From positions 2,813 to 66,812 of the forward strand of contig CAZSWF010000001.1 in NCBI GenBank assembly GCA_964610995.1: a stretch of DNA of 64,000 bases, in the 5' to 3' direction. The position numbers were made by a program, and so were the translations under genes. A model generated the notes under the pieces. That model did not search any database. It was not told the DNA's origin and saw only the letters and a program-made list of their open reading frames with translations. Position 1 is the first letter of the stretch. The number at the start of each line of letters is the position of its first letter. Positions 4,563-62,174 of this stretch are shown piece by piece. The stretch is from an uncultured Candidatus Saccharibacteria bacterium (GTDB lineage Bacteria; Patescibacteriota; Minisyncoccia; Phycocordibacterales; UBA9973).

Positions 4563-5201
4563 ATGCAATCAAACGTACCAGAGCCCATATTTCTCAACGT
4601 TGAGTATATCTTTTCGTGGTTGTGGGGACACATCTTTGGGCCACTGTTTTCACAGAACACAATTGCGTTCTTGCAGTTCTTGCTCTCGATACTGATCATC
4701 ATTGGTATCACGATCATTTTGTATAGTCTGGTACGCATCCATGAAATGAAGCAAGACGATGAACGCAAGGCTGCAAAAGCCAAAAAAGAAGCAACCCCCG
4801 CAGCAGCTCCTGCGCAAAGTACACGCAGCGGTATGGATCTACCTGGTGCAACCAGTGCGATAAGTGAATCACAGACGATCCCTCGCAACGAAACATGGGA
4901 ACATATTCGCAGCAAGCTCCTCTCTGAGAGTCAGAGTGACTGGCGACTTGCTATCATAGAAGCCGATATATACCTGGATCGCGTGCTCGATACTCGTGGA
5001 GTACCAGGAGACACGCTGGGCGACAAACTCAAAAATGTATCTCCCGAAATACTGCCATCGGTGCAAATAGCCTGGGAAGCACACAAGGTGCGCAACCGTA
5101 TCGCGCACGACGGCGCAGACTTTGCACTCACGATGCCCGAAGCTCGGCGGGTATTGTCGTATTTTGAGATAGTATTTCGAGATTTGCGCGTCATCGAGTA
5201 A
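4563..5201 (+). CDS. Membrane-anchored protein with C-terminal HEPN-like domain (Rx4H motif: KVRNRIAHDG)
   Basis: N-terminal 2 TM helices, Lys/Ala-rich linker, C-terminal alpha-helical region with R-N-R-I-A-H, which resembles the HepT/HEPN Rx4-6H catalytic motif. Confidence 0.5.
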   Translation: MQSNVPEPIFLNVEYIFSWLWGHIFGPLFSQNTIAFLQFLLSILIIIGITIILYSLVRIHEMKQDDERKAAKAKKEATPAAAPAQSTRSGMDLPGATSAISESQTIPRNETWEHIRSKLLSESQSDWRLAIIEADIYLDRVLDTRGVPGDTLGDKLKNVSPEILPSVQIAWEAHKVRNRIAHDGADFALTMPEARRVLSYFEIVFRDLRVIE

Positions 5202-5251: not shown

Positions 5252-5325
5252 CGCGGGGTAGAGAAGAGGTATCTCGTAAGGCTCATAACCTTAAGACCCA
5301 CGTTCGATTCGTGGCCCCGCAACAA
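5252..5325 (+). tRNA. Initiator tRNA-fMet (anticodon CAT)
   Basis: CGCGGGG...CTCATAA...CCCCGCA with C1.A72 mismatch and three G-C pairs in the anticodon stem, typical of bacterial initiator tRNA. Confidence 0.8.
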
Positions 5326-5333
5326 TCAAGCAA

Positions 5334-5360
5334 AAATCCCTATATAACATAGGGATTTTT
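5334..5360. terminator. Bidirectional rho-independent terminator hairpin (aaaaATCCCTAT-ataac-ATAGGGATtttt)
   Basis: Perfect 8-bp stem flanked by an A-tract and a T-tract, between convergent tRNA genes. Confidence 0.55.
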
Positions 5361-5379
5361 GCTATTGTGGCCAGGATAA

Positions 5380-5456
5380 TGGCGCGAACGACGGGACTTG
5401 AACCCGCAACCTCCCGCGTGACAGGCGGGTGCTCTAACCAGTTGAGCTACGTCCGC
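5380..5456 (-). tRNA. tRNA-Asp (anticodon GTC)
   Basis: Reverse complement gives GCGGACGTAGCTCAACTGGTTAGAGC...CCTGTCACGCGGG...GGTTCAAGTCCCGTCGTTCGCGCCA with encoded CCA. Confidence 0.85.
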
Positions 5457-5482
5457 AAATTGTTAACAAAGCCTTTCGGCCG

Positions 5483-5558
5483 GGTGTCGACGGGTGGGCA
5501 CGATCCACCGACCTTAGCGTTATGAATGCTACGCTCTAACCAGCTGAGCTACGCCGAC
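5483..5558 (-). tRNA. tRNA with CAT anticodon (elongator Met or Ile2/lysidine) with atypical T-loop (ATCGTGC)
   Basis: Reverse complement: GTCGGCG-TA-GCTCAGCTGGTTAGAGC-G-TAGCA-TTCATAA-CGCTA-AGGTC-GGTGG-ATCGTGC-CCACC-CGTCGAC-A; cloverleaf folds but T54 is A and 31:39 is A.C. Confidence 0.55.
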
Positions 5559-5631
5559 AAGCTTGCAACGACAGGGCTCAAAAAATATAGCATATATCCA
5601 CAAAAATTCAACACATGGTATACTGTCCGTA

Positions 5632-7972: not shown

Positions 7973-8007
7973 TTGAAAAAATACGTTTTTGTGATATCGT
8001 TTATGAG

Positions 8008-8083
8008 ACTTTATCCGTTGAAAAGACCTGTTTGATTAATTGCGATCATTCTAAAAACAGGTCGTACGGATAAAGTTCTTTTT
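8008..8083 (+). terminator. Large compound hairpin plus T-tract (terminator of helicase gene), abutting tRNA-Thr
   Basis: ACTTTATCCGT...GACCTGTTT / AAAAACAGGTC...ACGGATAAAGT two-tier inverted repeat followed by TTCTTTTT. Confidence 0.5.
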
Positions 8084-8159
8084 GCCGTTATAGCTCAGCT
8101 GGTAGAGCACTCCATTGGTAATGGGGAGGTCATCGGTTCAAACCCGATTAACGGCTCCC
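8084..8159 (+). tRNA. tRNA-Thr (anticodon GGT)
   Basis: GCCGTTATAGCTCAGCTGGTAGAGCACTCCATTGGTAATGGGGAGGTCATCGGTTCAAACCCGATTAACGGCT. Confidence 0.85.
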
Positions 8160-8175
8160 AAAACGTATCTATACC

Positions 8176-8204
8176 TTGACTTTGGCTCAATTCACGATAG
8201 AATT
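8176..8204 (+). promoter_or_regulatory. Sigma70-like promoter (TTGACT-17-TAGAAT)
   Basis: -35 TTGACT 8176-8181, 17-nt spacer, -10 TAGAAT 8199-8204. The TTG is what the ORF track used as a start codon. Confidence 0.45.
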
Positions 8205-8241
8205 AAGAAAATTTTTCACACAAACCAATACTCTAAAAGCT

Positions 8242-8448
8242 ATGAATGTGTATTCAGGATTAAAAAGCACTGCTTCAAATCGCCATCTGGATGGATGGCA
8301 AAACCTAATCACCGCTCAAGAAACCGGTAAAAAAGTAGGAAAAAAATTGCGCCAAAATGCCGATGTTGAGCTTGACGATGAACTCGATGAAGAACCAAAA
8401 GATGTTTTCAAAGAAAATGCTGAGTTCTTTCAATCATCAGATGATTAA
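8242..8448 (+). CDS. Small hypothetical protein (68 aa) with acidic C-terminus
   Basis: ATG at 8242 downstream of predicted promoter; followed by a terminator; no recognisable domain. Confidence 0.4.
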   Translation: MNVYSGLKSTASNRHLDGWQNLITAQETGKKVGKKLRQNADVELDDELDEEPKDVFKENAEFFQSSDD

Positions 8449-8458
8449 ATTATTACAC

Positions 8459-8497
8459 AAAAGGGCCAGCTCTCTCATGAGTCTGGCCTTTGTTATT
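8459..8497 (+). terminator. Rho-independent terminator (AAGGGCCAG...CTGGCCTTTG + T-rich)
   Basis: GC-rich hairpin followed by TTGTTATT. Confidence 0.55.
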
Positions 8498-8575
8498 ATC
8501 ACTTTTCATGCTATAGTATGGCACTTCTGAGTACCCGGAAACGGGACTTTTAATTTATATAATTTAAGGACATTT

Positions 8576-10381
8576 ATGGAAATACGAAACATTGCAATCA
8601 TCGCACACGTGGACCACGGCAAGACAACACTGACTGACAAAATGCTCTCATTTTGCGGTATTGTGCTTGATGGTGCATCTATGGACTCCAACGCCATCGA
8701 ACAAGAGCGTGGGATCACTATCTATGCCAAGAACACGGCAGTCATGTACAAAGGTACCAAGATCAACATCGTGGATACTCCAGGTCACGCCGACTTTGGA
8801 TCAGAAGTTGAACGCGTGCTTCGAAGTATCGACTCAGTGCTCTTGATCGTGGACGCCCAAGAAGGTCCTATGCCACAAACTCGTTTCGTATTGAAGAAGT
8901 CTCTCGAACTCGGCCTCAAGCCAATCGTCGTGATCAATAAAATCGACAAGCCAGGGTCAGATTGTGCGCATACACACGATGCAGTATTTGAACTCTTTAT
9001 GGAGCTCGGAGCATCTGATGAGCAGCTCGACTTTACCACCGTGTACGCAATCGGGCGTGATGGTGTTGCCATGCGCAATGAAAACGATGAACGCAAAGAT
9101 CTCGAACCATTGTTTGAAACGATTATCGAAAAAGTGCCAGTCGCACTCAACGACACTACCAAGCAGTTTCGTATGCAGGCATTCAACCTCGCGTACGACA
9201 ACTTCCTCGGACGTCTCGCGGCAGGTCGCGTGTACGAAGGTGTCGCAAAAGCTGGTGACACGGTGTACATTCGCAGTGGTGATGGTGCAGCCCGTACTGC
9301 GCGTATTGTAAAACTCTTTACATTTATGGGAATGAAGCGTGAAGAAGTAACCGAAGCAGTGGCAGGAGATATCGTCATGATCGCAGGTATCCCTGACATT
9401 TTCATCGGAGAAACTATTAGTACCAACAAAGAAGCAGAATTGCTCCCCGCTATCACAATTGATGAACCTACTATCGTGCTTGATTTCTTGGTCAACAACT
9501 CACCATTTGCCGGCAAGGAAGGTAAGTTTGTGACCTCTCGCCAGATTCGTGAACGCCTCGAACGTGAGCTTGAGACCAACGTTGGACTGAAAGTAAATTT
9601 TGACGCGAACCCTGATCGTATCGCCGAAGGCTTCACTGTCTACGGTCGCGGAGAAATGCACATTGCAGTATTGCTCGAAAACATGCGCCGTGAAGGATAT
9701 GAAATCCAGGTCTCACAGCCACAAGTTATTATCAAAGAAATCGATGGTGTGAAAAGTGAACCATTTGAAGAAGTCACAATCGATGCACCCGCAGAACACC
9801 AAGGTGTCATCATCGAAAAGCTCGGCATGCGAGGATTTATCATGGGTGATATGAACCTCAAGAACAACACCGTGCGCATGGTATTCACTGGCCCAACTCG
9901 TGGACTCCTCGGATACCGCAACCAGTTCCTCGTGGATACCAAAGGTGAAGGTATCATGAGTGCGCGTGTACTCGGCTTCCGTCCATACGCAGGAGAGATC
10001 ACTCGTCGTCAGGTGGGCTCTATGATCTCTATGGAAAGTGGCAAAGCACTCGCATTTGCGCTCTGGGGTCTCCAGGATCGCGGTACGCTCTACATTGGTC
10101 CTCAGACCGAAGTCTATGAAGGTATGGTGATCGGCAACACTTCTAAAGGTGAAGAAATGAAAGTGAACCCTACCAAGGGCAAGCAACTCACCAACATGCG
10201 CGCATCAGGAACTGACGAAGCAGTCACTATCATTCCACCATGGACGATGACTATCGAACGTGGACTTGAAGTAATGGTAGATGATGAATTCCTCGAAGTC
10301 ACACCACTCTCTGTGCGTCTGCGCAAGCAATACCTCAACGATGCAGATCGAGTAAAGGCTCGACGTCCAAAGAATCAATAA
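8576..10381 (+). CDS. typA: Translational GTPase TypA/BipA
   Basis: [11 protein letters not shown]1, DTPGHADF G3, NKID G4, EF-G-like domains, 601 aa. Confidence 0.95.
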
Positions 10382-54869: not shown

Positions 54870-55394
54870 ATGAAGTTAAATATCTATATCGATGGCAACA
54901 ATTTGTATCGGGCCGCAAAAGAGCTGGGATTTTATATTGATTACAAAAAATTTCGGGGATGGCTTCGCCAAAAGTATAATCCTAAAAACGTTTTTGTATT
55001 TATAGGACTCATTCCTGATAGAACGAGTTTTTATCAACATTTACAAGAAAGTGGATTTATTCTCATTTTCAAACAAACGATTTCTGTAGAAGGTATCGTT
55101 AAAGGAAACTGTGATGCCGAATTAGTTTTGAAGGCAGTTTCAGATTTTTATACTAAAAAAACAAACTCTTTCATTCTTGTTACAGGAGACGGAGATTTTG
55201 GATGTCTTGTTGGGTTTCTGCAAGAAAACAATGTCTTTAACAGAATATTGGCACCGAGCAGAGAAAAGCTATCGTTTCTACTTCGTAATAAAACAGAAGA
55301 CATTACTTTTCTGACTGATCATTATCATAAGTTTTCTACTCAAAAAGAAAAAGCCCCCGGTGGAGACGTATCTACACGAGGTTCTTTTTCATAG
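54870..55394 (+). CDS. NYN/LabA-like (PIN-fold) domain protein, AT-rich
   Basis: MKLNIYIDGNNLY..., VFVFIG..., ILVTGDGDF acidic motifs of the NYN domain. Confidence 0.7.
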   Translation: MKLNIYIDGNNLYRAAKELGFYIDYKKFRGWLRQKYNPKNVFVFIGLIPDRTSFYQHLQESGFILIFKQTISVEGIVKGNCDAELVLKAVSDFYTKKTNSFILVTGDGDFGCLVGFLQENNVFNRILAPSREKLSFLLRNKTEDITFLTDHYHKFSTQKEKAPGGDVSTRGSFS

Positions 55395-55684: not shown

Positions 55685-57748
55685 ATGCAATTCAAACTCT
55701 CAGGAGAATACCAGCCGGCGGGTGACCAGCCAGCTGCGATCAAGGCGTTGGTCAAAGGGCTCAAGGACGGCAAGCAGATGCAAACACTGCTGGGAGCGAC
55801 CGCAACCGGTAAGACATTCACTATGGCCAACATCATAGAGAGCGTGCAGAAGCCGACACTCGTGATCGCGCACAACAAAACACTCGCCGCACAACTTGCT
55901 CAGGAGTTCAAAAGCTATTTCCCGGACAACGTCGTCCACTACTTCGTTTCGTACTACGACTATTACCAGCCCGAGGCGTACATGCCGATCACGGATACGT
56001 TTATTGAGAAAGACGCACAGATCAACAAAGAAATCGATCGACTTCGCCATGCCACAACGCAAGCATTGCTCACGCGCAAAGACGTGATCATTGTTGCGTC
56101 AGTCTCATGTATCTACGGTCTCGGTAGTCCTGTGGAGTATGAAAAGACAAATTTTAAAATAGAAAAAGGTATGAAGCTCTCGCGTACCCAAGCAATGGAG
56201 CGTCTCATCTCGATTCATTTTTCTCGAACCAATGCCGACCTTGAGAGCGGAACATTCAGAGCACTTGGCAACAAGATCGACATCATGCCCGTCTCTGACA
56301 CGATCATGTACCAGATCGACTTCACCGGCAACGTCGTGCAAAGTATCGTAAAAATAGATCCTGTATCGTCACGTATCATCACTGAGGACGAACCATTTGT
56401 ATACATTTTCCCAGCAAAGCACTTCATCACCAATGGCGAAGAAAAAGATCGCGCAGTGCGCGACATAGAGCACGAGCTCAAAGAGCAACTCAAACATTTT
56501 GAAGCAGAAGGCAAACTCCTCGAAGCAGAACGCATCAAGCGTCGCACGACGTACGACCTCGCGATGATCCGTGAGATGGGATACTGCTCCGGTATCGAAA
56601 ACTACTCTCGTCACATGTCGGGCAAAGCAGCGGGGGAGCCACCAGAAACGCTGCTTTCATACTTTCCTCATGACAAAGATGGCAAACCAGAATTTATGCT
56701 CTTTATCGATGAGTCTCATGTGACTATCCCACAGCTTGGTGGTATGTACGCAGGAGATGCATCGCGCAAGACGACACTTGTCGAGTTTGGCTTCAGACTT
56801 CCAAGCGCCAAAGACAACAGACCGCTCAAGTTCGAAGAATTTAAAGAGCGCATTGGTCAGACCATATTTGTTTCTGCTACACCGGGCAAATACGAAGCGG
56901 AGAACTCAGAGCAGATCGTGGAGCAGATCATCCGACCGACAGGACTCGTCGATCCGCTCGTAGAGGTGCGACCTATTTTAGAAAAGGGTGAGTACTTGGG
57001 CCAAGTCCAAGACTTCATCACAGAAGCCGAAAAAGAAATTGCGACCGGTGGACGCGTGCTCGCAACGACACTCACCAAACGTATGGCCGAAGACCTCTCT
57101 GCATATCTCAAGGATCGCAAGATCAAGGCTGAGTATTTGCACTCTGATATCAAGACGATTGAACGCATCCAGATCATCACCAAGTTTCGAAAAGGAGAGT
57201 TCGACATACTCGTCGGCGTGAACCTGCTACGCGAGGGCTTGGACATGCCCGAGGTGTCACTCATCGGTATTCTCGATGCGGACAAAGAAGGCTTCCTCCG
57301 TAGCGAAGTCTCACTCATCCAGACGATCGGTCGCGCAGCGCGCAATGCCAATGGTCGCGTCATACTGTATGCCGACCAGATGACTGGCTCGATGGAGCGC
57401 GCGATCGGCGAGACCACCCGTCGTCGTGAGAAACAGCTCGCGTACAACAAAGAGCACGGCATTACCCCCAAGACTATTAGCAAAGTGATCCGTGACATCA
57501 CCGAAGGTATGGAGAGTGATCATGCCAAGGCCGTCAACGCTGAGCTCGCACTCGACCTCGCGCTGTTTGCGCAGATCGAAAAGGACCAGAAGGGGCGCAA
57601 GACCAAAGGCAAAAACCCGATCGAGAAACTCATAAAAATAAAAGAAGCAGAAATGAAAGAAGCCGTGAAGCTCCTCGACTTCGAAACCGCAGCGATCCTC
57701 CGTGATGAGATCGGTGTGTTGCGGGAGAAGACGTATATCAATCCATAG
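55685..57748 (+). CDS. uvrB: Excinuclease ABC subunit B
   Basis: GATGTGKT Walker A, beta-hairpin, helicase motifs, C-terminal UVR domain (ILRDEIGVLRE). Confidence 0.97.
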   Translation: MQFKLSGEYQPAGDQPAAIKALVKGLKDGKQMQTLLGATATGKTFTMANIIESVQKPTLVIAHNKTLAAQLAQEFKSYFPDNVVHYFVSYYDYYQPEAYMPITDTFIEKDAQINKEIDRLRHATTQALLTRKDVIIVASVSCIYGLGSPVEYEKTNFKIEKGMKLSRTQAMERLISIHFSRTNADLESGTFRALGNKIDIMPVSDTIMYQIDFTGNVVQSIVKIDPVSSRIITEDEPFVYIFPAKHFITNGEEKDRAVRDIEHELKEQLKHFEAEGKLLEAERIKRRTTYDLAMIREMGYCSGIENYSRHMSGKAAGEPPETLLSYFPHDKDGKPEFMLFIDESHVTIPQLGGMYAGDASRKTTLVEFGFRLPSAKDNRPLKFEEFKERIGQTIFVSATPGKYEAENSEQIVEQIIRPTGLVDPLVEVRPILEKGEYLGQVQDFITEAEKEIATGGRVLATTLTKRMAEDLSAYLKDRKIKAEYLHSDIKTIERIQIITKFRKGEFDILVGVNLLREGLDMPEVSLIGILDADKEGFLRSEVSLIQTIGRAARNANGRVILYADQMTGSMERAIGETTRRREKQLAYNKEHGITPKTISKVIRDITEGMESDHAKAVNAELALDLALFAQIEKDQKGRKTKGKNPIEKLIKIKEAEMKEAVKLLDFETAAILRDEIGVLREKTYINP

Positions 57749-58661: not shown

Positions 58662-59171
58662 ATGCACCCAGTTATGTTCATACTTCTCTGTATCGGAGGA
58701 GTCGCCCTGCTTATGGTATACGGTATCAACCCTGCTATTGCGCGCCGTGATGCGCGAAAATCCCAGGAAGCCATCGATCGCAATATCGAATGGCAGCTTC
58801 TGGAAGGATTGGAGTATCCTCATCAGATTACTATCGCGCTTCTGGCGCAGTATTCTGACAAAGAAAAAATCGCCCGGATTATCTCTTCTCGGATACGAGA
58901 GTACCTCGCTATTGGTGCTCATCCTCAGCAGTTGGCAAGGTTGTTTGAAAATCTCGGCCTCTATGATGAAACCAAAAAAGGTGACACCAGAGAGATTGAG
59001 ATTGCTGCACTGATCAAGTACTACGTGCTCGAGGATGTTTCCCGCACTGATTTAAGTAATTACCGGAGCACACTTACAAGCGACAAGGTCAGAGGGCTGG
59101 AGAGGCTCAACATGAGCTTCATCATGAAGGCAAAGAAATCATCGTTCGTTTGGAGTCCGCTCGACAATTAG
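58662..59171 (+). CDS. Hypothetical membrane-anchored protein
   Basis: N-terminal TM, helical remainder; followed by strong terminator. Confidence 0.45.
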   Translation: MHPVMFILLCIGGVALLMVYGINPAIARRDARKSQEAIDRNIEWQLLEGLEYPHQITIALLAQYSDKEKIARIISSRIREYLAIGAHPQQLARLFENLGLYDETKKGDTREIEIAALIKYYVLEDVSRTDLSNYRSTLTSDKVRGLERLNMSFIMKAKKSSFVWSPLDN

Positions 59172-59273: not shown

Positions 59274-59690
59274 TTACGCAGCTTTTTCTTTTGGATAGAT
59301 CATAGTGTCATTTTGCCAGTCGGTATGTACCGTTTCTTTTTGGAAATCGAGCCACACCATTGTTCTGGAAGGGAAGAAGGTGTTGGGTATCTGAGCTTTA
59401 CACAGAAATTTTGAAAGAGGGTATTCTGGTGCCCAGTCCACATCTAGCGTCAGTTGCCCCTTCCTTTCGGCATACGGTGTCGCGTACTTCCTCAATTCAT
59501 CTGAAAAGATCTTGATCTGCTCGTCCGTGATTGTTGTCGCAGTATGTACACTCATTTTAGCAAAGGTGGCGAGTATTGATCCAAACCCGTCCATCCCACC
59601 GTTTGCACGATCACCATATTCTGGCTTTTTCATAAAGGAAACGTACCACTCGATGGTGGCGTCGATCATGTTAGTTGCAGTCTGTGTCAT
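59274..59690 (-). CDS. Hypothetical cytoplasmic protein
   Basis: 138 aa ORF; no recognised motif. Confidence 0.45.
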   Translation of the reverse strand: MTQTATNMIDATIEWYVSFMKKPEYGDRANGGMDGFGSILATFAKMSVHTATTITDEQIKIFSDELRKYATPYAERKGQLTLDVDWAPEYPLSKFLCKAQIPNTFFPSRTMVWLDFQKETVHTDWQNDTMIYPKEKAA

Positions 59691-59792
59691 AAAATGTGCG
59701 TTTTTATTATTGTAACATATATCACTTATTTGTCAATTTGTACGGCGGGGTAGGGGTTTGTGAAAGAAGGGGAAGTGTGGGATAGTATCAAT

Positions 59793-60140
59793 ATGGAAAA
59801 CGCCAGCAGGTTTACTGCTCTCGTAGAGCGTATCAAAAAATTCTCAGCCGATCGTGATTGGTCTCAATTTCATGACCCAAAGAACCTTGCAATATCTTTG
59901 AATCTAGAAGCTTCAGAAGTGCTTGAGTTGTATCAGTGGACAAAAGACAATCAGCTTAAACCTGAGCGTGCCGGTAAAATAAATGACGAGCTTGCAGATG
60001 TCTTTTATTGGCTTGTTCTTCTTTCAAACTACTACAATATAGATCTTGTCGAAGCACTTGATAAAAAAATGGATCAAAATGAGCAAAAATATCCAGTAGA
60101 GAAAGCGAAAGGAAAATCAGATAAATATAATGAACTGTAA
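59793..60140 (+). CDS. MazG-like all-alpha NTP pyrophosphohydrolase domain protein
   Basis: EASEVLE (ExxE) and ELADVFYWL Mg-binding helices, DQNEQKYP C-terminal region; stop is 3 nt before next ATG. Confidence 0.7.
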   Translation: MENASRFTALVERIKKFSADRDWSQFHDPKNLAISLNLEASEVLELYQWTKDNQLKPERAGKINDELADVFYWLVLLSNYYNIDLVEALDKKMDQNEQKYPVEKAKGKSDKYNEL

Positions 60141-60143
60141 TGT

Positions 60144-62174
60144 ATGTCAAAAATACAATCGTTTAAATTTAATAGAGATAATTTTCAAAACATAAAAGCC
60201 TACCGTTTTGGGAAAAATTGGCCAGTTGTATATGTTGCAGAAAATGGAAAGGAGGCGTATATAGGTGAAACAGTAAATGTATTTCATAGAAGTCGTCAGC
60301 ACTATGAAAATCCTGAACGACAAAAACTAAATAAAATACATATTGTAACTGATGAAGAATTTAATAAATCAGCTGCTTTAGATATTGAGTCATGGCTTAT
60401 TCAATATATGTCGGCCGATCAAATATTTACTCTTCAAAATGGTAATAGTGGTCTTCAAAATCATAACTACTATGATCGTCCAAAATATAAAGCAAAATTT
60501 GAACTAATCTGGGAAAAGTTTAGAGAAATGGGTATTGCAAAAAATACCTTAGAAGATTTAAAAAATACAGACCTTTTTAAATATTCTCCCTATAAATCAT
60601 TAACTGAAGATCAGTTTATTGTTGCTCGGCAAATTTTTGAAGATTTAAAAAATAATCAAGCTCAAACGTATATTATAAATGGAAAACCAGGGACAGGTAA
60701 AACAATTCTTGCAACCTATCTTTTTAAATATTTAAAAGAACAAGATGAAACAAAACACCTAAAGATGGCCCTCGTAGTACCAATGACTTCTCTTCGAAAA
60801 ACTATTGGAAAAGTTTTTAGTAAAATAAAAGGATTGAGTAGTGGAATGGTAATTGGGCCAAATAAAGTAGCGCGAGGAGCTTATGATCTTGTAATCGTCG
60901 ATGAAGCACATCGTTTACAAAGGAGAAAAAATATTATGGGCATGGGTGCTTATGACAATATAAACAGATTTCTTAACTTGTCTGCAGAGTCGACGAATCT
61001 TGATTGGATAATGAAAACCTCAAAACATCAAATATTTTTTTATGATGAAAATCAAAGTATCAAACCTTCTGATGTTAGAAAGGAAGATTTTAATAATCTA
61101 AATGCAAAACATTATAAACTTACAACACAAATGCGCATAGGAGCTGGTGATGAGTATATTCATTTTATTGAGGATTTATTTGATCTTAAGGTTCCAGATA
61201 AAACAAGTTTTGAAAATTATGATTTTAAAGTCTATGAAAGCGTTGAAGGCATGGTTTCAGATATAAAACAAAAAGATAAAAAATATGGACTTTCTCGAGT
61301 AGTAGCGGGATATGCATGGCCTTGGCATACAAGAAATGGTGTTCAGCCTTATGATATTGAAATTGGAGGATATAAAGGCGTGTGGAATTCTACCGCGACA
61401 GATTGGGTAAATGCACCCAATGCCATAAACGAAGTTGGATGTATTCATACAGTCCAAGGGTATGACTTGAATTATGTAGGAGTAATTATTGGCCCCGAAT
61501 TTGGATACGACACAAAAAATAAAAAATTTTTTGTAGATAAAAAGAAATATCTCGATAGGAATGGTCGTGCCGGGGTACATGATCCGGTTGAGTTAGAACA
61601 ATATATTAAAAATATTTATAAAACAATTCTTACTCGGGGAATCCGAGGAACTTTTGTGTATATATGTGATGATAGTTTAAGATCTTATTTTAATAGTATT
61701 TTAAATAAAGGCGATAACTTAGAAAAAAGTTCAATTATTAAAACTTCGATCGAATCAATTTATTTTAATAAAGAAACAGTTAAATTACCTTTATTTGAGT
61801 CTGTTGGGTGTGGTGAGTTTATGATCGCAAATTCTCTCCCAGAAGATTTTTTGAAAGTAGATAAAAAATATGTTTCAACTGGATCAAAATATTTCGTACT
61901 TCGTGTTTCTGGAGATTCTATGAATCAGGTAGGTATAAACGATGGTGATTTAGTATTATGTCGTAAAGAATATAATCCACCGCAAGGAAAAAATGTAGTA
62001 GCCTTGGTAGGTGATGATGCTACTATCAAAGAGTATTGGAAAGAAGGAAAAACAGTAATCTTGAAACCAAAATCAAGTAATCCAAAACATCAAGTTATGG
62101 AATTTACAGAAGATGAACAGGTTTTTATTCAAGGTGTTGTTCTCCGAGTTTTAAAAGATGGTGATTATGAATAG
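60144..62174 (+). CDS. Three-domain fusion: N-terminal GIY-YIG nuclease, central DUF2075/SF1-helicase-like P-loop ATPase, C-terminal LexA/UmuD-like S24 peptidase domain
   Basis: VVYVAENGKEAYIGETVNVFHRSRQHY ... ESWL ... QNGN (GIY-YIG); GKPGTGKT Walker A, LVIVDEAHRL Walker B, IHTVQGYDLNYVGVIIG (SF1 motif VI-like); LPLFESVGCGEF linker with Cys-Gly, GDSM Ser nucleophile, ATIKEY Lys (S24). Very low G+C. Confidence 0.8.
   Translation: MSKIQSFKFNRDNFQNIKAYRFGKNWPVVYVAENGKEAYIGETVNVFHRSRQHYENPERQKLNKIHIVTDEEFNKSAALDIESWLIQYMSADQIFTLQNGNSGLQNHNYYDRPKYKAKFELIWEKFREMGIAKNTLEDLKNTDLFKYSPYKSLTEDQFIVARQIFEDLKNNQAQTYIINGKPGTGKTILATYLFKYLKEQDETKHLKMALVVPMTSLRKTIGKVFSKIKGLSSGMVIGPNKVARGAYDLVIVDEAHRLQRRKNIMGMGAYDNINRFLNLSAESTNLDWIMKTSKHQIFFYDENQSIKPSDVRKEDFNNLNAKHYKLTTQMRIGAGDEYIHFIEDLFDLKVPDKTSFENYDFKVYESVEGMVSDIKQKDKKYGLSRVVAGYAWPWHTRNGVQPYDIEIGGYKGVWNSTATDWVNAPNAINEVGCIHTVQGYDLNYVGVIIGPEFGYDTKNKKFFVDKKKYLDRNGRAGVHDPVELEQYIKNIYKTILTRGIRGTFVYICDDSLRSYFNSILNKGDNLEKSSIIKTSIESIYFNKETVKLPLFESVGCGEFMIANSLPEDFLKVDKKYVSTGSKYFVLRVSGDSMNQVGINDGDLVLCRKEYNPPQGKNVVALVGDDATIKEYWKEGKTVILKPKSSNPKHQVMEFTEDEQVFIQGVVLRVLKDGDYE

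Follow-up and report, generated by a model that had tools for sequence, protein, structure and literature searches.

The stretch of DNA analysed here (the window) comprises 64,000 nucleotides of contig CAZSWF010000001.1, positions 2,813 to 66,812 of the forward strand, from an uncultured Candidatus Saccharibacteria bacterium (assembly GCA_964610995.1). An open reading frame (ORF) on its plus strand (60144..62174) encodes a 676-amino acid protein in which a GIY-YIG-like nuclease domain, a DUF2075 superfamily 1 (SF1) helicase, a disordered linker and a predicted self-cleaving S24 domain follow one another. The probable nuclease domain covers N-terminal residues ~1-130 (60144..60533, +) and contains VVYVAE at residues 28-33, AYIGET at residues 38-43, R49, E82 and N99. 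The helicase domain, of the DUF2075 or Schlafen group-3 family, spans residues 174-509 (60663..61670, +; PF09848, E 4e-68), with Walker A motif GKPGTGKT at residues 180-187 (60681-60704, +) and Walker B motif VIVDEAHR at 60891-60914 (+), whose DEAH corresponds to residues 253-256. A variable linker of residues ~516-545 (61689..61778, +), probably disordered given its low conservation, indels and low predicted local distance difference test (pLDDT) values, leads to the LexA-type Peptidase_S24 domain, which includes the cleavage-site region and occupies residues 549-676 (61788..62171, +). The protein is thus predicted to join a probable DNA-cutting domain and a DNA-unwinding motor to a C-terminal self-cutting module of the LexA type.

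The match of the C-terminal part to Peptidase_S24 is far beyond chance. PF00717 aligned to residues 549-666 with an E value of 2.5e-23 and 82.4 bits against a cut-off of 23.3, over model positions 1-115 of 116. The NCBIfam lexA model (TIGR00498) matched with E 1e-23 at model positions 75-201 only, its score of 84 lying under the cut-off of 110.95, and the UmuD model (NF007621) scored lower, at 62.7 against a cut-off of 110. In a phmmer comparison with PDB sequences, E. coli LexA residues 70-201 aligned to residues 542-675 (E 7e-16), which paired Cys556-Gly557 with A84-G85, Ser592 with S119 and Lys629 with K156. BLASTP against UmuD, in a sequence consistent with the PDB match 8gmt_B, placed the Cys-Gly pair on C24-G25, Ser592 on S60 and Lys629 on K97 at 29% identity. 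The cleavage-region peptide LPLFESVGCGEFM is present in the translated ORF. On every sequence criterion, the domain is a member of Peptidase S24.

These alignments define a predicted scissile bond between Cys556 (61809-61811) and Gly557 (61812-61814), together at 61809..61814 (+). The predicted nucleophile Ser592 (61917..61919, +) lies in the motif GDSM (61911-61922), and the predicted general base Lys629 (62028..62030, +) in ATIKEY (62019-62036). All four residues, together with an extra Cys606 in the strand LVLC (61959-61961, +), were invariant in 119/119 aligned homologs sharing 59-94% identity. The Cys-Gly pair, Ser and Lys were also invariant in 41/41 S24-bearing loci from different species, even though the S24 domains of these species-level loci were only 39-63% identical to the query. 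Divergence everywhere but at the scissile bond and the dyad matches the expectation under selection for self-cleavage. A sequence-only reading of this DNA had proposed a C-terminal S24 domain, a linker aligning with the LexA and UmuD cleavage site, and a Ser-Lys dyad placed as LexA S119/K156. The domain is genuine, the Cys-Gly pair falls on both known cleavage sites, and the dyad is aligned and conserved across about 160 family members; the reading had named loss of positional conservation of dyad or dipeptide as grounds for giving it up, and we found the dipeptide and the dyad conserved in position relative to LexA and UmuD. Its coordinate for the Lys codon was right, and its Ser motif was correct with a codon position (~61918-61920) one base off.

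The rest of the protein is an enzyme. PF09848 scored 230.6 bits against a cut-off of 24 and covered model positions 2-354 of 354, and both GKPGTGKT and DEAH were invariant among homologs. A Foldseek search against the PDB matched the helicase fold to RecD2, SLFN11, Upf1, Dna2 and Dda, which are SF1 helicases (SF1B). For the N-terminal domain, the Pfam GIY-YIG signal at residues 33-60 was weak (E 0.045, 14.5 bits, under the cut-off of 22.6), and more distant relatives exceeded that cut-off with 23.7-31.3 bits. Residues Y30, Y39, G41, R49, E82 and N99 were invariant in the homolog alignment. An AlphaFold2 model of residues 1-150 reached a pLDDT of 86.6 and matched the GIY-YIG domain of UvrC (1ycz; probability 0.97, TMt 0.58, weak E value of 0.06). 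Given the invariant motif residues, the UvrC fold match and the relatives that pass the Pfam cut-off, the N-terminal domain is probably a GIY-YIG nuclease. No helix-turn-helix (HTH) Pfam match was found in the main ORF, residues 1-545 being taken up by the GIY-YIG-like and helicase parts. The proposal that the S24 domain is fused to an enzyme rather than to a DNA-binding domain was thus borne out, the partner being a probable GIY-YIG nuclease with an SF1 DUF2075 helicase.

We then considered where the S24 module came from. A search with the S24 domain alone returned fragments of the same fusion family first, followed by canonical LexA repressors from many phyla at 44-51% identity, which have a LexA_DNA_bind or HTH_3 plus S24 architecture. 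A Cys-Gly scissile dipeptide is usually quoted as a feature of UmuD. Here, the dipeptide occurred in 99/104 of the nearest LexA relatives, along with GDSMN and ATIKE[FY] as in the query, in a set drawn from a word-indexed search that may favour Cys-Gly-type sequences. Because these LexA repressors carry it too, Cys-Gly is no UmuD signature in this setting. Judged by its relatives, the module is the C-terminal domain of a Cys-Gly LexA subgroup grafted onto an enzyme. A UmuD origin was rejected, as the LexA model scores higher (84 against 62.7 bits) and the nearest relatives outside the family are Cys-Gly LexA proteins; the earlier description of the bond as UmuD-type is therefore right about the dipeptide and misleading as a label. 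The Cys-Gly LexA repressors (P0138-P0240) span Omnitrophota, Flavobacteriaceae, Scalindua and Woykebacteria, the textbook form being Ala-Gly. No umuC-like or Y-family polymerase gene was found in the examined neighbourhoods, including a related locus in Pseudomonas putida.

We utilized AlphaFold2 to predict the structure of the full protein from the 119-sequence alignment, obtaining a mean pLDDT of 82.9 and a predicted template modelling score (pTM) of 0.66. Residues 523-542 had pLDDT values below 50, which indicates that they form a flexible tether, and the S24 part had values of 60-88. Compared by Foldseek, the S24 part superposed on cleavable or RecA-bound LexA at 2.3 Å (1jhe_A), 2.4 Å (8gms_A) and 2.3 Å (8s7g_A), with TMt values of 0.84-0.87 in a predicted model whose loop pLDDT is about 62-74. 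Nanobody-locked and G91D forms of LexA superposed at 4.5-5.0 Å. The closer fit to cleavable and RecA-bound conformers mildly suggests that, in the model, the Cys-Gly loop sits in the active site. This conformer argument is soft because 1jhc, which we take to be a cleavable-form LexA, fits at 4.5 Å.

We analysed the distribution of the fusion across 5.8 billion proteins and obtained 7919 matches. Nearly all of the best 120, which were 59-94% identical to the query, carry both PF09848 and PF00717, and the fusion is a single ORF in well over 100 independent assemblies. The context had been called unusual beforehand; this holds relative to the literature and does not hold in the databases. In a scan of GTDB with one genome per species, at least 587 genomes contained relatives, and we analysed the 80 best loci. 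The S24 form was present in 40 of these. Hosts were almost all Patescibacteria (Paceibacteria, Nomurabacteria, Minisyncoccia and others), and the S24 form was concentrated there.

A short form of ~520-540 amino acids, without an S24 remnant downstream, was found in 37 of the best 80 loci. Short forms end 10-15 residues past the last helicase helix, in the linker region, and their hosts include Patescibacteria, Gammaproteobacteria, Clostridium, Bdellovibrionales and Bacillus plasmids. Short and long forms were interleaved in a rough neighbour-joining tree of the core, which has long terminal branches and no support values, and some short forms were 73-79% identical to the query, the level of its second-nearest long relatives. 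Since natural short forms exist and are interleaved with long ones, the S24 module is optional and the S24-less enzyme is a viable natural product. Among long forms, two S24 subtypes, SVGCGEL and SAPCGEP, did not follow core similarity. The query compared with locus L001 gives 68% in the core and 60% in the S24 domain, and compared with L004 68% and 46%. Because the subtypes depart from core similarity, they suggest that S24 modules have been exchanged.

One locus, L088, represented by one population in two sequencing runs, has the S24 part as a separate 142-amino acid ORF beside a 529-amino acid helicase ORF. The split (4960-5010; P0123) is a single 1-nucleotide frameshift in the linker and may reflect an error in sequencing, a pseudogene or a split that the protein tolerates. 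Other candidates for naturally split genes were set aside: P0132 and P0136 are multiply fragmented genes on ENA contigs that look like frameshift errors, and P0416 (Spiribacter) is a truncated gene call whose start falls within the helicase. An origin of the fusion in phages or plasmids was also rejected, as no record in the phage and plasmid collections searched covers at least 80% of the protein and only short forms or isolated S24 repressors match there. Among 2.9 million viral contigs, only 5 contained relatives.

When 1.84 billion cluster representatives were searched exhaustively with HMMER, 487 relatives were obtained at E ≤ 1e-30, of which we examined the best 150. The S24 domain was present in 19 of these, and 15 of the 19 form a second, divergent class (within P0243-P0321). 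Class-2 proteins, which are more distant relatives (41-49% identity), are ~700-820 amino acids long, most of them ~730-750. Their S24 domain contains an insertion, and both the GIY-YIG and the S24 match exceed the Pfam cut-offs. The features (A/C)-G, GxSM and [TS][IVL]K were kept in 18/19 S24-bearing representatives, the exception being P0281, which has lost the scissile Ala/Cys and the Lys. Class 2 includes RefSeq proteins from P. putida and P. bharatica CSV86 (WP_064301751.1 and WP_009394069.1), annotated merely as 'DNA/RNA helicase domain-containing protein'; the P. putida gene lies at 8001-10202 of locus L093. A word-indexed search with the class-2 S24 domain gave 17 matches, nearly all fragments of the same family. 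The position of Cys606 is Ile or Val in related LexA proteins and Cys in all class-1 members; in class-2 proteins, this strand carries a Cys two positions earlier. A 252-amino acid metagenomic fragment, P0427, combines the start of an HsdR_N-type nuclease/helicase with a class-2-like S24 cleavage region (PLIPLRAAAGAF...GRSM). S24 modules may thus be fused to other restriction-type enzymes too, P0427 being an incomplete sequence on a short contig.

The nuclease-helicase gene forms a two-gene cassette with a gene for a MazG-like nucleotide pyrophosphohydrolase (59760..60140, +; PF12643, E 3e-15), a partner that the sequence-only reading had not mentioned. This first gene has 126 codons, starting at GTG 59760 or ATG 59793, and the main ORF begins 4 nucleotides after its end. 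A MazG-like homolog directly adjoins the nuclease-helicase gene on its upstream side in 79/80 related loci. The same pairing occurs in P. putida (L093), on a Bacillus thuringiensis megaplasmid, where the gene is annotated 'nucleotide pyrophosphohydrolase', and in the five viral contigs. It is thus almost invariable in Patescibacteria, Pseudomonas, Bacillus plasmids and the few viral contigs, whether or not S24 is present. The MazG part had no PADLOC match, and no cassette neighbour other than the MazG-like gene was conserved among the related loci.

A low-GC island (59760..62174) coincides with the cassette, which has a GC content of 32.3% compared with 47.0% in the rest of the window. It is the lowest-GC 2.4-kb stretch in the 64 kb (mean 46.5%, standard deviation 3.4%), about 4 standard deviations below the mean. 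This island in its 47.0% GC surroundings points to recent horizontal acquisition of the cassette. The window shares synteny with contigs from a close relative (L082) whose protein is 94% identical, and in both genomes the cassette lies between uvrB and uvrA (here 55685-57748 and beyond 63600), with a photolyase gene a few kb beyond this site. Among the 80 species loci, the uvrB/uvrA/photolyase setting was common to L001 only. In other genomes the neighbours were unrelated; they were housekeeping genes or belonged to repair or defence-like systems (Pyr_excise, DNA_alkylation, NUDIX, Fic, PIN, M78+HTH and ubiquitin-like).

An operator or SOS-box search of 75 upstream regions found no recurrent palindrome beyond AT-rich chance pairs. 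The P. putida cassette had no CTGT-N8-ACAG site upstream, and its locus contained fewer matches than chance would give. The absence of a conserved upstream operator or SOS box fits post-translational control.

We compared the fusion protein with known systems. The C-terminal domain is 33-51% identical to that of LexA, with LPL..x..(A/C)G(E)P, the GxSM serine and the T(I/V)K lysine at identical alignment positions, and the fold predicted for it fits LexA in the RecA-bound or cleavable form at 2.3-2.4 Å. In place of the winged HTH of LexA, however, there is a 545-residue nuclease-helicase, and the lexA model was matched in its C-terminal half only. Because it has no DNA-binding domain and scores 84 against the lexA cut-off of 110.95, the protein is no LexA-type transcriptional repressor, and identity with LexA was rejected. 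With UmuD it shares the aligned Cys-Gly, GDSM and Lys and a possible precursor-to-working-form logic (UmuD to UmuD'). UmuD, in contrast, is a stand-alone protein of 139 amino acids from which cleavage removes a 24-residue arm, whereas here two large parts would separate. Identity with UmuD was likewise rejected (62.7 against a cut-off of 110; fusion to a 545-residue enzyme).

Nhi, Nhi-like and AbiO proteins, which are single-protein nuclease-helicases directed against phages, resemble the enzyme in combining an N-terminal nuclease (a probable one here), an SF1B DUF2075 helicase and an extra C-terminal domain in one horizontally mobile polypeptide. The PADLOC models for Nhi (E about 1e-17 to 5e-17) and AbiO (about 1e-15 to 2e-15) matched the helicase part only, the Nhi model at positions 171-364 of 470. 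In Nhi, the nuclease is of the PD-(D/E)XK type and the C-terminal domain is another one (10.1101/776245), unlike the GIY-YIG-like nuclease, S24 C-terminus and adjacent MazG-like gene (79/80 loci) found here. Given the different type of nuclease and an alignment confined to the helicase region, membership in Nhi was rejected. SLFN11, a group III Schlafen with a part in responding to DNA damage and replication stress (PMC6765204), shares the helicase family (PF09848) and was a structural match (7zel). Its N-terminus is a tRNA-directed nuclease rather than a GIY-YIG-like domain, Schlafens lack S24, and the homology is distant, as identity in the structural alignment was 11-12%. The searched literature on DUF2075 gave no description of the S24 fusion or of the MazG partner; most subscription journals lay outside the search, so an earlier description is possible. 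In the control of CBASS by CapH and CapP, the metallopeptidase CapP cleaves a separate HTH repressor, and control is transcriptional. The concept is similar in that a protease step links a DNA-damage or single-stranded DNA (ssDNA) signal to an immune effector, whereas here a predicted serine autoprotease of the S24 family is fused to the effector itself.

LexA-family self-cleavage is a textbook readout of DNA damage by bacteria and phages. In each case studied so far, what it controls is either a repressor that binds DNA or UmuD, the polymerase subunit. The protein described here probably carries this LexA-type self-cleaving module on an enzyme, a known module in a new setting. We infer a mechanism in which the S24 core, with Ser592 as nucleophile and Lys629 as base, would cut its own chain between Cys556 and Gly557, in a strand-loop just after the ~30-residue flexible linker. 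The products would be a ~556-residue fragment with the GIY-YIG and SF1 helicase parts and a ~120-residue S24 fragment. The trigger would be binding to RecA-ssDNA filaments, which form upon DNA damage or phage DNA replication, so that enzyme activity would be coupled directly to the signal without a transcriptional step. RecA-ssDNA is the most probable trigger because the characterised close relatives (LexA, UmuD and lambda cI) are RecA-dependent. The released large fragment would approximate the natural short form plus a ~30-residue tail. Cleavage would activate the enzyme, or free it from tethering or dimerisation, as in the conversion of UmuD to UmuD'; activation or release is favoured over inactivation because the cleaved large fragment resembles the natural S24-less short forms. 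The enzyme would act with the upstream MazG-like nucleoside triphosphate pyrophosphohydrolase as a mobile two-gene cassette in defence or DNA damage processing.

We think that DNA damage or phage infection probably switches the enzyme by removal of its tail. That the nuclease-helicase is a latent proenzyme with a built-in LexA-type self-cleaving switch, triggered by RecA-ssDNA and acting by activation or release, seems to us a little better than an even bet. A fuller version, which we put forward tentatively and at somewhat under even chances, is that RecA-ssDNA filaments directly license the nuclease-helicase by self-cleavage, making it a transcription-independent effector that senses SOS conditions or phage; its S24 domain would have been acquired from LexA on one or more occasions and kept, catalytic residues included, in two divergent classes, where it would serve as an add-on safety catch on a mobile cassette that is widespread in the genome-reduced Patescibacteria and also occurs in Pseudomonas. 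Several points weigh against the proenzyme account. RecA-independent LexA-like proteins exist, IrvR being an example (PMC7101444). The neighbour-joining tree in which short and long forms mix has no support values and has long terminal branches. In the structural model, the cleavage loop reaches a pLDDT of only about 62-74, and the LexA entry 1jhc superposed at 4.5 Å. A motif search of the 64-kb window found neither recA nor lexA. Finally, the neighbourhoods mix repair genes (uvrB, uvrA, photolyase, Pyr_excise and DNA_alkylation) with defence-like genes (NYN, Fic, PIN, M78+HTH and ubiquitin-like), and being mixed they do not settle whether the cassette serves anti-phage defence or damage processing.

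The switch could also run in the opposite direction. In a LexA-style inactivation or turnover, the full-length enzyme would be active, its S24 domain would dimerise it or target it to RecA filaments, and cleavage would dismantle the dimer or expose degrons. The LexA derivation of the domain speaks for this, as does the established knowledge that cleavage inactivates LexA and cI; SLFN11 (7zel), which the helicase part matches in structure, functions as a dimer. Conservation of the catalytic residues fits this scheme and would be equally expected of a latent proenzyme. However, S24-less short forms are widespread and interleaved with long ones, so S24 is unnecessary for a functional enzyme, and we regard inactivation as unlikely.

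Self-cleavage independent of RecA appears a decidedly slim prospect. It could take the form of constitutive maturation, or the cue could come from pH, from a phage protein, from nucleic acid bound by the helicase or from a nucleotide signal that depends on MazG. LexA-family proteins are known to cleave themselves at high pH without RecA, the adjoining enzyme domain could provide a conformational trigger in cis, and the invariant Cys606, where LexA has Ile or Val, hints at family-specific chemistry. The LexA-like protein IrvR departs from the RecA paradigm (PMC7101444). Nevertheless, the closest S24 relatives are all canonical LexA proteins, and the predicted model resembles RecA-bound LexA.

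It is very improbable that the S24 domain works in trans, either as a protease whose target is host LexA, the MazG-like partner or a repressor of a phage, or as a decoy in competition with LexA for RecA filaments. It is well established that, in a UmuD dimer, cleavage can be intermolecular, and L088 has the S24 part as an ORF of its own. However, that split is a 1-nucleotide frameshift, perhaps an error or a pseudogene, and (I/L)PL..S..CG(E)(P/L) is strictly kept in cis at the canonical distance to the Ser, which a protease acting purely in trans would not need. That the domain is a non-catalytic relic, a product of chance similarity or an artefact of assembly, for which class-2 P0281 without the scissile Ala/Cys and Lys might speak, is effectively refuted by the Pfam E value of 2.5e-23, the single ORF in well over 100 independent assemblies and the four functional residues that stay invariant despite divergence to ~40% identity.

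If the fused module does act as a switch, it would extend LexA-type control to the direct regulation of an enzyme. DNA damage, or ssDNA arising in phage replication, could then release or disable a DNA-degrading motor within minutes, without new gene expression. Patescibacteria have tiny genomes, few known defence systems and no genetics; the divergent versions in cultivable P. putida and P. bharatica make the switch idea directly testable. The near-invariant MazG pairing (79/80) also defines a two-gene cassette.

Several other features were observed in the window. A second low-GC island (~33%) just upstream of uvrB corresponds to a gene for an NYN-domain (LabA-like) protein (54870-55394), for which the NYN nuclease model of PADLOC gave a match (E 2e-10). 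Three related loci and L084 likewise have NYN genes close to the cassette. Between a TspO gene and the cassette are two ORFs, at 58662-59171 (+, 169 amino acids) and 59274-59690 (-, 138 amino acids), which had no Pfam or PADLOC match and were absent from all 80 related loci. An Rfam search of the window gave seven tRNAs and no other family at gathering score, and a tRNA cluster at 5252-5559 comprises Met, Asp and Met tRNAs on both strands.

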